Assembly: GCA_015694865.1 (NCBI GenBank)
Contig: GCA_015694865.1_3933.1
Direction: 5' to 3' (one strand)
DNA: 25,324 bases
Origin: a phage
In this document: one piece after another, positions 339 to 15,596 of the stretch
How positions within the stretch are numbered: the first letter of the stretch is position 1
Layout: each line of letters starts with the position of its first letter
Made by a program: the position numbers and the translations under genes
The notes under the pieces: model-generated
The model's database searches: none
What the model was told of the DNA's origin: nothing
The model's input: the letters and a program-made list of their open reading frames with translations, nothing else

Positions 339-1691
339 TTATTCGTAAGCCACTGTACCTTTCAAGTCAACATCCAAGATAGCCCCTGCTAAGATACCTG
401 CGAAGGTAACATCTTTCAGGATACGAGCTTTCTTGTCTGCCAAAGCAACTTGAGAGGCTTTAGGAACATTAACTGTGTAAGATGACAGGAAGTTTCTGTT
501 GACTGCTCTTTGTAGAGAGGTTTCAATGACTTGACGAATACGGGTAATACCAGTATCATCATAAGTAATCTTACCACCCTTCTGGTTAATTAGCAAGTCT
601 CTCAGAGAAGTTTTCAGGTCTGATTCTAACCAGTCAACGCCACGGACGATATCAATCCATTCCCCACCAGAAGTAATCCCTCTACGAACCACTGGAACAC
701 CACCATCAAGGTCAATAAAGCTACAGTGACGTACATCTAAAGCAGACTTCTGAATACTTGTCAGAGGTCTCTGATTAGATGGTTGTAGAGAAGCTGCTAC
801 ACCAGTTAGCTGAGCATTACCCCAAGCAATTGAACCTGCATCATATGGAGCACCATAAGCAATGTATGCCATCTCTGGGTAGTCTTCTGCTGCTGCGTGA
901 TGCCACAAGCAAACTGTACGAGTGTACATACTCTTAGCAAGCTGTGCTGGAACATCATTTGCACTGGCTAATTCTGTACCTTGCAGGGCTGTTACATCGG
1001 AGTTAGCTGTAAAGAAGATTTTCTTGCGAGCCTGAATCTCAGAAGCCATTGCTAAGACAAACTGTTGAGTTCTGTCTTCTGCTGCAATGAAATACCAGTC
1101 AGTAGAGTAAGCTTCGATAGCTGCCAGAGCAGTTGATGCTGTATCGGCAGTTGTACTTGCAATATGCACAGTCTGTGCTGTAGTTGTTACTTTCACAAAG
1201 TCATTATCACCAGCTTTGGTAATAATCATTGTGGCAGAGCCATTGCTACCAGTTACGTTCACAGAAACCTTATCTTTGATTGTTGTGTCATCTTCAATCT
1301 GTGTTTTAAACTGTTGCAACACTTTTTCAGCAGTGTCTTCATCTCGCGCTGTATACTGATATAGTTGAGAAATTCCACCGCCAGCAGCTACAGTAATTGA
1401 GTAGTCTGTACTTGCAGCAACGGCATTAGGAATTGATACAGTGTACTGCATAGCACGTCTACCAATATAAAGCTGAGTTACTTTAGGAGTCTGACTCCAA
1501 AGTTGTTTAGCAGCCTTATATGCAGCAGAGTTTTCATCGAAATCTTCAGCAACTTCAGTTAAGGAAGTGTAACCACGGACTCTTTCTTCAAAGTTATCTG
1601 TTGAAGCTAAGAATAGTGGCAAACCAAAACCTTCTCTTGTAGTTCCTGCGGTGTTCAATGTAATATCTACATTAACAATTGGATTCCACAT
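339..1691 (-). CDS. tail sheath-like structural protein (putative)
   Basis: 450 aa ORF; position after the head genes and before the tube-like gene; start codon abuts the stop of the upstream gene with an AAGGGG RBS. Family assignment is from memory of sheath-like proteins, not a search. Confidence 0.55.
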   Translation of the reverse strand: MWNPIVNVDITLNTAGTTREGFGLPLFLASTDNFEERVRGYTSLTEVAEDFDENSAAYKAAKQLWSQTPKVTQLYIGRRAMQYTVSIPNAVAASTDYSITVAAGGGISQLYQYTARDEDTAEKVLQQFKTQIEDDTTIKDKVSVNVTGSNGSATMIITKAGDNDFVKVTTTAQTVHIASTTADTASTALAAIEAYSTDWYFIAAEDRTQQFVLAMASEIQARKKIFFTANSDVTALQGTELASANDVPAQLAKSMYTRTVCLWHHAAAEDYPEMAYIAYGAPYDAGSIAWGNAQLTGVAASLQPSNQRPLTSIQKSALDVRHCSFIDLDGGVPVVRRGITSGGEWIDIVRGVDWLESDLKTSLRDLLINQKGGKITYDDTGITRIRQVIETSLQRAVNRNFLSSYTVNVPKASQVALADKKARILKDVTFAGILAGAILDVDLKGTVAYE

Positions 1692-10861: not shown

Positions 10862-10937
10862 TGGAGAATCCGAAGGGACTCGAACCCTTATAAACCTGTT
10901 TTGCAGACAGGCACATAGCCATTTCTGTCACGGATTC
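10862..10937 (-). tRNA. tRNA-Cys (anticodon GCA)
   Basis: 76 nt on reverse complement; acceptor GAATCCG/CGGATTC, T-arm AAGGG-TTCGAGT-CCCTT, anticodon loop CTGCAAA, CCA encoded. Confidence 0.8.
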
Positions 10938-13611: not shown

Positions 13612-13687
13612 TGGTACAGGTGGAGGGAATTGAACCCATCGTCTTACTGATTAAGAGTCAGCCGCATAACCATTTTGCTACACCTGC
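13612..13687 (-). tRNA. tRNA-Lys (anticodon CTT)
   Basis: 76 nt; acceptor GCAGGTG/CACCTGT, anticodon stem GCTGA/TCAGT with loop CTCTTAA, T-loop TTCAATT, CCA encoded. Confidence 0.7.
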
Positions 13688-13772: not shown

Positions 13773-14028
13773 ATTAAATCTTTTTAGAGAACTTCTAAGA
13801 ACCTAAGCAACAAGGTTCCACAACAAGCTGTAATAACCTTAGAAGCCCTCTAAAAAGACCTAAAAAGGTCTTTGCATAGTCTTGTTTAATCCGGTGACTA
13901 GAACCTTTGGAGAGCTTGATATTATCTCTTCTCCGTGACACCTACTAGGTGCTTTACTGTGCTTGTACGACAATACACGAGGGATACCAAAGCAACATCC
14001 GAATGAAGCTTGGCTTTAAACCTTATTA

Positions 14029-14131: not shown

Positions 14132-14214
14132 TGGCATGGGACGGAGGAGTTGAACCCCTTTGAAACGGTTTTGGAGGCCGTTGCTCATGCCTTAGAGTCT
14201 TAACATCGTCCCAT
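14132..14214 (-). tRNA. tRNA-Trp-like (anticodon CCA) with abnormally long D-region; possibly a tRNA-like ncRNA
   Basis: 83 nt; perfect 7-bp acceptor ATGGGAC/GTCCCAT, T-loop TTCAACT, anticodon arm ACGGC-CTCCAAA-ACCGT, but about 16 nt between the D-stem strands. Confidence 0.5.
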
Positions 14215-14433: not shown

Positions 14434-14636
14434 ATTAATCTTTAAAGACTCTCTTAGAAAGCCCTTAAAGATGCCCACCTTATTAATCATACCGTGGGCT
14501 AGTACGCCAAATTCTTTGATGAGGGATTGGAAGACCTCACTGGTGTTTAGCCTATCAAGCTACTGCCAGAAAAACATTGTCGTTTGCATTTATTTTAAAT
14601 TTGCAAAATAGACGCTACGCAACGAAAACTAAGGTT

Positions 14637-14665
14637 ACTATAAAGTAGTCACATCTCAATGTCAA
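14637..14665 (-). promoter_or_regulatory. sigma70-like promoter on minus strand (TTGACA-17 bp-TATAGT)
   Basis: Plus-strand tgtcaa at 14660-14665 and actata at 14637-14642 give, on the minus strand, -35 TTGACA, a 17-nt spacer and -10 TATAGT, pointing at tRNA-Arg(TCT) and downstream tRNAs. Confidence 0.55.
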
Positions 14666-14680
14666 CAACTTTATTGAAAT

Positions 14681-14756
14681 TGGTACTGGTAGGTGGAATC
14701 GAACCACCGATGTTCCCTTATCAGGGGAGTGTTATAACCTTCTTAACTATACCAGC
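14681..14756 (-). tRNA. tRNA-Ile (anticodon GAT)
   Basis: 76 nt; acceptor GCTGGTA/TACCAGT, D-stem GTTA/TAAC, anticodon loop CTGATAA, T-arm GGTGG-TTCGATT-CCACC, CCA encoded. Confidence 0.75.
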
Positions 14757-14757
14757 T

Positions 14758-14834
14758 TGGAGGTTCAGATGGGATTCGAACCCATCGCCTGTCAGATTAA
14801 AAGTCTGCCGCATCACCATTCTGCTACACTTCCA
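14758..14834 (-). tRNA. tRNA-Lys-like (anticodon TTT) with poorly paired acceptor stem (possible pseudo-tRNA)
   Basis: Paralogous in sequence to the 13612..13687 tRNA-Lys; good T-arm ATGGG-TTCGAAT-CCCAT and anticodon arm GCAGA-CTTTTAA-TCTGA, but acceptor strands GGAAGTG vs CTGAACC pair at only 3 of 7 positions. Confidence 0.45.
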
Positions 14835-14837
14835 TTA

Positions 14838-14981
14838 AATTATCTTTGTAGATAAGCTACCCAGACTTGCTTAATGTCTGTAGCGATGTGCCTTTTTGGG
14901 TTTAAATCTAGAATTTACCCTTTCACCCTTTGTGGTCGCATACTCACAGGTAAGCTTAATAACTTATCTACAAAGATAATT
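14838..14981. repeat. 19-bp perfect inverted repeat (14838-14856 / 14963-14981) flanking a 106-bp non-coding segment
   Basis: aattatctttgtagataag at 14838-14856 is the exact reverse complement of cttatctacaaagataatt at 14963-14981. Confidence 0.7.
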
Positions 14982-15030
14982 ACCAGACCGTTGTTTATCA
15001 TCTTAAGTGCTACCATTACACCAACTCGAC

Positions 15031-15080
15031 ATCTGCCGAGTGAAGGAATCGAACCTTCGCCTTTTCTTTACCGGAGAAAT
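15031..15080 (-). ncRNA. tRNA-like fragment (T-arm plus 3' acceptor strand without a pairing 5' strand)
   Basis: Reverse complement gives TTTCT-CCGGTAA-AGAAA, then GAAGG-TTCGATT-CCTTC-ACTCGGC; no complementary 5' acceptor strand or recognisable D-arm within about 80 nt upstream. Confidence 0.35.
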
Positions 15081-15120
15081 AGATTGTTTAAGTTTTGCTG
15101 AATACGGTCTTCTGCAAAAT

Positions 15121-15197: not shown

Positions 15198-15287
15198 ATT
15201 CTCAATGACCAGACCAAATATCTTCTTTGTCCGATTTCGTGTCAGATGAGTAGATTAAGTTTGCTGTAATTGGTCTTCTGTCAAAAC

Positions 15288-15449: not shown

Positions 15450-15567
15450 ATAAACTTTTCAAACTCTATGTAACCACTTTAACATTATTTTTTAGTGGTT
15501 GTCAAGAACTTTTTTAAAATATTTTTCAGTATCTTAGAAAAGCTCTCATTTCGTTTCTATGTAGAAC

Positions 15568-15596
15568 ATATTAAAGGGTATCAAACACATTGTCAA
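15568..15596 (-). promoter_or_regulatory. sigma70-like promoter on minus strand (TTGACA-17 bp-TAATAT) upstream of the tRNA array
   Basis: Plus-strand tgtcaa at 15591-15596 and atatta at 15568-15573 give, on the minus strand, -35 TTGACA, a 17-nt spacer and -10 TAATAT; the -35 sits in the loop of a 9-bp inverted repeat (aaagggtat/ataccctt). Confidence 0.5.

Follow-up and report, generated by a model that had tools for sequence, protein, structure and literature searches.

A probable hybrid tRNA-Lys/tRNA-Met gene in the tRNA array of a Felix O1-like phage

The tRNA array and a tRNA-Lys(UUU)-like gene with a mismatched acceptor stem

The window, by which we mean the whole stretch of 25,324 nucleotides analysed here, is placed in the Felix O1-like group (Felixounavirus, Ounavirinae) and carries the tRNA array of such a phage. 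A 2-kb query around the gene described below has matches in 279 phage records, of which Enterobacteria phage ECP2307 is the best, at 98.1%. ARAGORN reports 22 tRNA genes between positions 10862 and 15450, every one of them on the minus strand. The gene of interest and the tRNA gene next to it are as follows:

14758..14833, minus strand: whole tRNA-Lys(UUU)-like gene, 76 nt, with G1 at 14833 and A76 at 14758 (ARAGORN; Rfam tRNA, 42.7 bits)
14801..14799, minus strand: its anticodon, TTT
14681..14756, minus strand: tRNA-Ile(GAU), the next gene, 1 nt downstream (ARAGORN; Rfam, 62.3 bits)

Base 14834 is position -1 and lies outside the gene proper. On the minus strand the gene reads GGAAGTG TA GCAG AATGGTG ATGC G GCAGA CTTTTAA TCTGA CAGGCG ATGGG TTCGAAT CCCAT CTGAACC T CCA. 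The presence of a tRNA-Lys(TTT)-like element at this place, as given in the original prediction, is confirmed by both programs. The Rfam tRNA model (RF00005) matches 14761..14833 over its full length (model positions 1–71) with a score of 42.7 bits (E = 8.8e-7), which exceeds the gathering score of 29 and is far beyond chance, but is about 12 bits below the scores of the intact Lys and Met genes (54.4 and 56.4 bits, respectively) discussed below as its parents. The ARAGORN call, tRNA-Lys(ttt), covers 14758..14830 (73 nt) and puts the anticodon at position 30, whereas intact copies have it at position 33, indicating that three 5' bases were dropped to find a stem.

The internal arms are well formed, as had been predicted for the anticodon and T arms: the 7-nt anticodon loop CUUUUAA has U33, the T loop conforms to TTCRA, the T arm AUGGG-UUCGAAU-CCCAU has a flawless 5-bp stem, and the D loop AAUGGUG contains GG. 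The predicted pairing of the acceptor strands at only three of seven positions was also found, the strands GGAAGTG and CTGAACC aligning as G-C, G-C, A.A, A.A, G.G, U.U and G-C, with the four non-pairs in a row at positions 3-70 to 6-67. The 7-bp acceptor helix with a single-stranded N73-CCA that is canonical for elongator tRNAs is absent, and the earlier statement that no normal acceptor helix can form agrees with the acceptor pair probability computed with ViennaRNA, which is 0.0 as against 0.88–1.0 in the intact parental genes. In the minimum-energy fold the 5' GGA pairs with UCC of the 3' end, tying up the CCA end.

The relatedness to the tRNA-Lys(CTT) gene at 13612..13687 is likewise real, with 60 of 80 aligned positions identical. 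We note that this Lys(CTT) gene, like the intact Lys(UUU) copies in relatives (e.g. L008 1942..2014), has an irregular T stem (GAYGGG / CCCTC), which can be drawn with A49.C65 and U50.U64 mismatches or, alternatively, with 5 bp and a single bulged pyrimidine. The bulged pyrimidine varies (T or C) among relatives, and the T stem of the gene described here is regular.

Two parental genes and an 81-bp deletion

Two intact adjacent genes, tRNA-Lys(UUU) and tRNA-Met(CAU), occupy this site in all 29 relatives that were read directly, including Felix O1, where both are intact, and the closest relative, ECP2307. They are separated by a spacer of 4–5 nt, or longer where DNA has been inserted, and at 28 of 28 other loci with the Lys anticodon arm, the Lys 3' end is intact and followed by Met. 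Compensatory changes in the Lys acceptor helix are present in the related genomes L004 (GGGGGTG/CACTCCC) and L006 (GGGAGTG/CACTCCT), which argues that the helix is selected when the gene is whole. The comparison with related genomes suggested in the original prediction was thus the right test, and it revealed a 7-bp acceptor helix in each of two complete genes, Lys and Met, with compensatory bases in that of Lys. The proper partner of the Lys strand GGAAGTG is CACTTCT and that of the Met strand CTGAACC is GGTTCAG, and the acceptor of the window gene is mismatched, with its A.A and U.U oppositions, because its two strands come from these different genes. The gene can be divided into three parts:

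14784..14833, minus strand: Lys(UUU)-only part (nt 1–50), with the same sequence as in the intact tRNA-Lys(UUU) genes of ECP2307, ekra and Felix O1
14771..14783, minus strand: crossover zone (nt 51–63), GGGTTCGAATCCC, in the T stem and T loop; TTCGAAT is present in both genes of ECP2307 and L004–L007
14758..14770, minus strand: Met(CAU)-only part (nt 64–76), with the same sequence as the 3' end of intact tRNA-Met(CAU) genes in ECP2307, ekra and Felix O1

The Lys(UUU)-only part comprises the 5' acceptor strand GGAAGTG (14833..14827), the D arm, the anticodon arm, the variable loop and the first T-stem bases, and the Met(CAU)-only part comprises the final two T-stem bases (AT), the 3' acceptor strand CTGAACC (14768..14762), the discriminator T (14761) and CCA (14760..14758).

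Aligned with ECP2307, nt 1–63 correspond to Lys(UUU) and nt 51–76 to Met(CAU) with no mismatches, and GGGTTCGAATCCC is present in ECP2307 as a perfect 13-nt direct repeat in the Lys and Met T arms, the copies being 81 bp apart. ECP2307, Meda and several IMG/VR genomes have TTCGAAT as the Met T loop, such that the 13-nt string is found in both of their genes. A three-way alignment of the window with relatives contains a clean 81-bp gap and zero substitutions in either retained half; the scattered substitutions or small indels expected of decay by point mutation are absent from the gene in comparison with the parental genes of ECP2307. When BLAST matches to a full-length array are chained, the break falls at Lys nt 63 on one side and Met nt 51 on the other. 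The annotation of phage ekra lists Lys, Met and Ile in that order after Asp, whereas the window has a single gene beside Ile. The ekra Lys(UUU) gene ends in ...GGGTTCGAATCCCTCCACTTCTACCA and is followed 5 nt on by Met(CAU), GGTTCAG...GTGGGTTCGATTCCCATCTGAACCTCCA; the window follows the Lys sequence through GGGTTCGAATCCC and continues with ATCTGAACCTCCA, the Met 3' end, the switch falling inside TCCC when ekra and the window are read directly.

Thus, the two halves of the gene are identical to neighbouring parental genes, the junction lies in sequence that these share, the missing length equals the spacing of the repeat, and the two-gene state is ancestral. We put the probability at about 90% that an 81-bp deletion has produced a hybrid (chimeric) tRNA gene here, with the front of tRNA-Lys(UUU) and the tail of tRNA-Met(CAU), and nothing in the data contradicts a deletion origin. 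The ancestral minus-strand order, retained by every relative examined, is tRNA-Lys(UUU), a short spacer, tRNA-Met(CAU) and tRNA-Ile(GAU). From it the window has lost one repeat copy together with all that separates the two, presumably through replication slippage or illegitimate recombination at the repeat. The product combines the 5' acceptor strand, D arm, anticodon arm and T loop of Lys with the 3' acceptor strand, U73 and CCA of Met. If the Met T loop of the window phage was TTCGATT before the deletion, as it is in ekra, the usable homology would have been 8 + 4 nt and not 13.

The fusion is confined to this one sequence among those searched. The 60 best GenBank matches to 14720–14880 are all in two pieces, spanning 242 or 316 bp as compared to 161 bp in the window; a 47-nt junction query has no one-piece match among 213 records; and the junction is absent from about 210–250 GenBank relatives, IMG/VR, the JGI metagenomes and the GTDB genomes, with no string combining Lys-specific and Met-specific sequence in either of the latter two collections. 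Five IMG/VR matches to a 26-nt junction string were rejected as fusions, all being intact tRNA-Met genes with the T loop TTCGAAT, and it was these that revealed the 13-nt repeat. The Lys–Met spacers of L017, L022, L024 and L030 contain a 74–81-nt insert with complementary ends (GCCCCTT...AAGGGGC), which explains the 316-bp spans of the GenBank matches. In Felix O1 (L125, AF320576) the intact tRNA-Met(CAU) that follows Lys(UUU) is at 637..713, and is omitted from the tRNA table of the 2010 genome paper (Whichard et al. 2010, PMC3185647). A 495-bp ORF (ORF97, 722..1216) is inserted between Met and Ile in the same genome, and its Cys- and His-rich sequence leads us to guess that it encodes an HNH-type homing endonuclease.

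The earlier proposal of a decaying duplicate is correct in that the gene belongs to the Lys lineage and is most likely dead, but descent from a duplicate of tRNA-Lys(CTT), with decay through point mutations, is exceedingly improbable. The 60/80 identity between the two genes would fit such a descent, as would the unusual T stem and D arm common to both Lys genes; however, the first 63 nt are the same as in the intact and widely conserved Lys(UUU) of relatives, the last 26 nt agree fully with the adjacent Met gene, the sole difference from the two-gene state is one clean gap, and the exchange of a strand accounts for every acceptor mismatch, leaving no scattered substitutions to explain. An assembly or sequencing artefact, the real genome having both genes, is suggested by the uniqueness of the hybrid junction to this sequence and by the like uniqueness of a second deletion (see below). 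We regard this as quite unlikely, since the 13-nt repeat is shorter than usual assembler k-mers and reads, which would make collapse improbable, comparable deletions in tRNA arms are found in the independent genomes L003 and L019, and tRNA content is known to vary within the genus (PMC8300805). The deletion may nonetheless have arisen through laboratory passage, or less likely reflect an assembly error, instead of being a natural variant.

It is very unlikely that the hybrid still functions as a tRNA-Lys. Its score above the Rfam threshold, its intact UUU anticodon and loop, and a T stem that is a cleaner helix than that of the parent are all compatible with function, but these are set against the four consecutive non-pairs with an acceptor pair probability of 0, a minimum-energy fold that consumes the 3' CCA region, and a discriminator U73 where the intact gene has A73. 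A73 contributes to recognition by E. coli LysRS, and a stacked acceptor/T helix is needed by RNase P. The other suggestion of the original prediction, a tRNA-like RNA kept for another role, finds no support in the comparisons, the fusion being a singleton, and is highly improbable. One such role would be that of an uncharged decoy presenting the Lys(UUU) anticodon arm to host anticodon nucleases, and it is true that the anticodon, D and T arms are intact, that the gene is probably co-transcribed with the array, and that PARIS AriB is among the host defences that target tRNA-Lys(UUU) and are countered by phage tRNAs (PMC12409363). The hybrid, though, is present in one genome and nowhere else in four large collections, giving no sign of selection, it was made at the expense of a normal Lys(UUU) gene, and the second, unrelated private deletion of three tRNAs suggests a general erosion of the array. 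We give as little credence to the more specific notion that a stable, uncharged hybrid serves as a decoy or sponge for anticodon-directed nucleases (PARIS AriB, PrrC) or tRNA-modifying enzymes, with the deletion as an adaptive conversion to a mimic. The deletion-derived, non-adaptive hybrid of Lys and Met genes remains the preferred reading.

Deletion-formed hybrid tRNA genes were reportedly described in the phage T4 tRNA cluster by McClain and Foss in 1984, and those cases are said to be laboratory deletion mutants. As reported, they resemble the hybrid described here in that a deletion within the cluster fuses the 5' portion of one gene to the 3' portion of a second where the two share sequence; the differences are that our hybrid comes from a sequenced Felix O1-like phage, that its join is between Lys(UUU) and Met(CAU) within the T arm, and that its acceptor stem is mismatched. 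The window gene is a further instance of this T4-type deletion-derived hybrid. A second point of comparison is provided by the tRNA pseudogenes of Felix O1, which include a 'Pseudo (Tyr)' entry (Whichard et al. 2010, PMC3185647). These lie in the same array and are similarly tRNA-like without satisfying structural criteria, but they are conserved across relatives, were flagged for unusual structure, and are not fusions of neighbouring genes.

Other deletions, spacers and a tRNA mimic in Felix O1-like arrays

The window carries another private deletion within the transcription unit of the hybrid, with its junction located by alignment and array comparison:

15090..15120, minus strand: junction of the second private deletion

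This deletion is 478 bp relative to L007 and 508–569 bp relative to ECP2307 and ekra, and takes out tRNA-Asn(GUU), tRNA-Tyr(GUA) and tRNA-Asp(GUC). Its breakpoints are in copies of a repeated spacer motif, CAGAAGACCGT..CAGCAA, and its junction is absent from the GenBank relatives.

Two related genomes have hybrids of their own, with breakpoints that likewise fall in short strings common to tRNA genes and with the intervening genes removed. In L019 (IMG/VR 2974574300) the Leu gene after tRNA-Val consists of the 5' end of Leu(CAA) and Leu(UAA), which meet within a 13-nt D-arm string common to both, CCAATTGGCAGAG; two Leu isoacceptors are thus joined, six of seven acceptor pairs are kept, and this Leu/Leu hybrid may still work. 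The L003 hybrid, located upstream of tRNA-Met, links the T arm of a tRNA mimic (described below) to the Lys(UUU) 3' end through a 272-bp deletion with the join at GGTTCGATTCC, so that Lys(UUU) is destroyed from its 5' side. The window junction is absent from both genomes. A recurrent 81-bp deletion at Leu(CAA)/Arg(ACG) in L001, L013, L026 and L029 was considered as a further hybrid and rejected, since there a single gene has been cleanly excised between CCAATTT repeats. Felixounavirus genomes have 17–23 tRNAs each (PMC8300805), a range that fits turnover of the tRNA array by deletion.

The spacers of the array have features of their own. A repeated spacer module is present at 15280..15209 (minus strand) and 15114..14983 (minus strand), with two more copies in ECP2307/ekra (L008, L001). 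Its 5' CAGAAGACC(G/A).. pairs with the 3' ..(C/T)GGTCTGG to enclose 50–130 nt, and one copy encloses the tRNA mimic. These modules may be processing hairpins, and they double as deletion substrates. There is also a perfect 18-bp inverted repeat, ATTATCTTTGTAGATAAG / CTTATCTACAAAGATAAT, at 14839..14980 (minus strand), around approximately 106 nt between the tRNA mimic and the hybrid, and the array spacers 13773..14028 and 14434..14680 have complementary strings at their starts and ends; all three regions may represent structured RNAs. A tRNA-like stretch at 14132..14212 (minus strand) is not called by ARAGORN, and its only Rfam match is tRNA-Sec, with a sub-threshold score of 23 bits. Its acceptor stem (GGGACG/CGTCCC) is good and its Trp-like loop, CUCCAAA, closes on a C.A mismatch, but the D region is over-long and irregular. 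Its identification with the tRNA-Trp(CCA) of L014/L020 was rejected because the latter lies in a 413-bp insert of different sequence.

The tRNA mimic is an unannotated element just upstream of the hybrid, lying between the arms AGACCGT and ACGGTCT, and is organized as follows:

14983..15114, minus strand: whole tRNA mimic
15079..15063, minus strand: small hairpin
15058..15042, minus strand: T arm, GAAGG-TTCGATT-CCTTC
15041..15024, minus strand: closed helix, ACTCGGC-AGAT-GTCGAGT, with a loop in place of acceptor ends
15021..15007, minus strand: D arm, GTGT-AATGGTA-GCAC

The mimic is present in 241 GenBank records of Felix O1-like phages and annotated in none. Across three clades its T and D arms are invariant, and the closed helix of 6–7 bp is rewritten yet complementary, reading ACACGT-TACG-GCGTGT and ACCCTTC-GCCAAACA-GAAGGGT in the other clades. 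RNAalifold recovers the three helices without being given a structure, with changes on both sides at three of the seven closed-helix pairs. The bacterial Y RNA YrlA has a tRNA-like domain consisting, in order, of a variable hairpin, a T arm, a closed acceptor-like stem-loop that is not conserved in sequence, and a D arm (PMC4201824), and the order of parts in the mimic matches this description. Assignment of the mimic as YrlA was rejected, as there is no conserved Ro60-binding motif (GNCGAAN0-1G), no rsr gene nearby and no family match: its flanks are tRNA genes, its only GNCGAAG-like string, GGCGAAGG, overlaps the T stem and has C changed to A in L004, L019, L026 and L029, and a search of Rfam at E <= 10 returned no family beyond a partial tRNA.

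A covariance model built from the mimic finds one copy in the window, and identifies closed-acceptor elements, each with a T arm, closed helix and D arm, in the tRNA arrays of unrelated phage contigs, where neither ARAGORN nor Rfam calls a tRNA:

L115/L122, 2004..2094: closed-acceptor element
L034, 11933..12026: closed-acceptor element
L090, 930..1025: closed-acceptor element
L082, 13256..13348: closed-acceptor element

The closed helix of L115, TCAACAC-TTCG-GTGTTGA, is 36 nt upstream of tRNA-Lys(UUU). The closing loop begins with G-CCA in L090 and in Felix clade C, a sequence feature that may point to tandem tRNA copies as the source, or to processing by RNase P and CCA addition. These elements may constitute an undescribed family, or may be repeatedly formed relics of tandem tRNAs. 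Matches of the model in L032, L052 and L109 were dismissed as false positives at ordinary tRNA-tRNA junctions. A scan with the D-arm string TAGTGTAAYGGTAGCACAG was unspecific: besides 75 ordinary tRNAs, its 121 matches comprised 34 that were unclassified and 8 lying at contig edges, leaving only 4 candidate mimics, and two of these may be tandem tRNAs. We consider the mimic to be of greater interest than the hybrid, and it merits a study of its own.

Transcription and consequences for the phage

Promoter-like sites are located upstream of tRNA-Pro at 15596..15568 and 15505..15476, with none between there and the hybrid, and the next strong promoter-like site is after tRNA-Ile, at 14665..14637, where it matches the P45 consensus given for Felix O1 (PMC3185647). 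From the positions of these sites, the hybrid RNA is probably transcribed from the promoter or promoters upstream of tRNA-Pro, together with Pro, Glu, Met and Ile. RNase P cleavage at the 5' end of tRNA-Ile(GAU) would then set the 3' end of any hybrid transcript. With four acceptor mismatches, U73 in place of A73 and a tied-up CCA, the hybrid is likely to be a poor substrate for RNase P as well as for LysRS, and would not be expected to accumulate as a working tRNA; judging from its sequence and predicted fold, it is most likely uncharged, degraded and non-working. The phage would then be without a working tRNA-Lys(UUU) and without the tRNA-Met(CAU) of this site. With the second deletion, five tRNA genes of the canonical array, Lys(UUU), Met(CAU), Asn, Tyr and Asp, are lost or broken.

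In phage T5, the phage-encoded Lys(UUU), Thr(UGU) and Asn(GUU) tRNAs counter AriB, the nuclease of PARIS, and the tRNA-deletion variants T5 123 and T5 Mos were used in that work, in which the loss of tRNAs shows as sensitivity to a tRNA-cleaving defence (PMC12409363). These variants are similar to the window phage in being viable with blocks of tRNAs lost, including tRNA-Lys(UUU) and tRNA-Asn(GUU), but they belong to another phage family and no hybrid gene is described in them. The window phage keeps Thr(UGU) and is missing Asn(GUU) and a working Lys(UUU), and by analogy with T5 it may be more sensitive to PARIS-type defences. A link to retron Eco2 was set aside as irrelevant, the paper concerned mentioning Felixounavirus only as mostly unrestricted.

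The hybrid is above the Rfam gathering threshold and is called by ARAGORN, so that a pipeline would annotate it as tRNA-Lys; it is best marked as a pseudogene or hybrid and not as tRNA-Lys. By itself the hybrid is of little consequence, being a further example of a known process. Taken with the other deletions, it offers a base-pair view of how genes are lost from Felix O1-like tRNA arrays, by deletions between strings shared by T or D arms or between spacer motifs that recur. T5 counters PARIS with three tRNA species, and the window phage has lost two of them; it would thus provide a natural test case for the purpose of these tRNAs.
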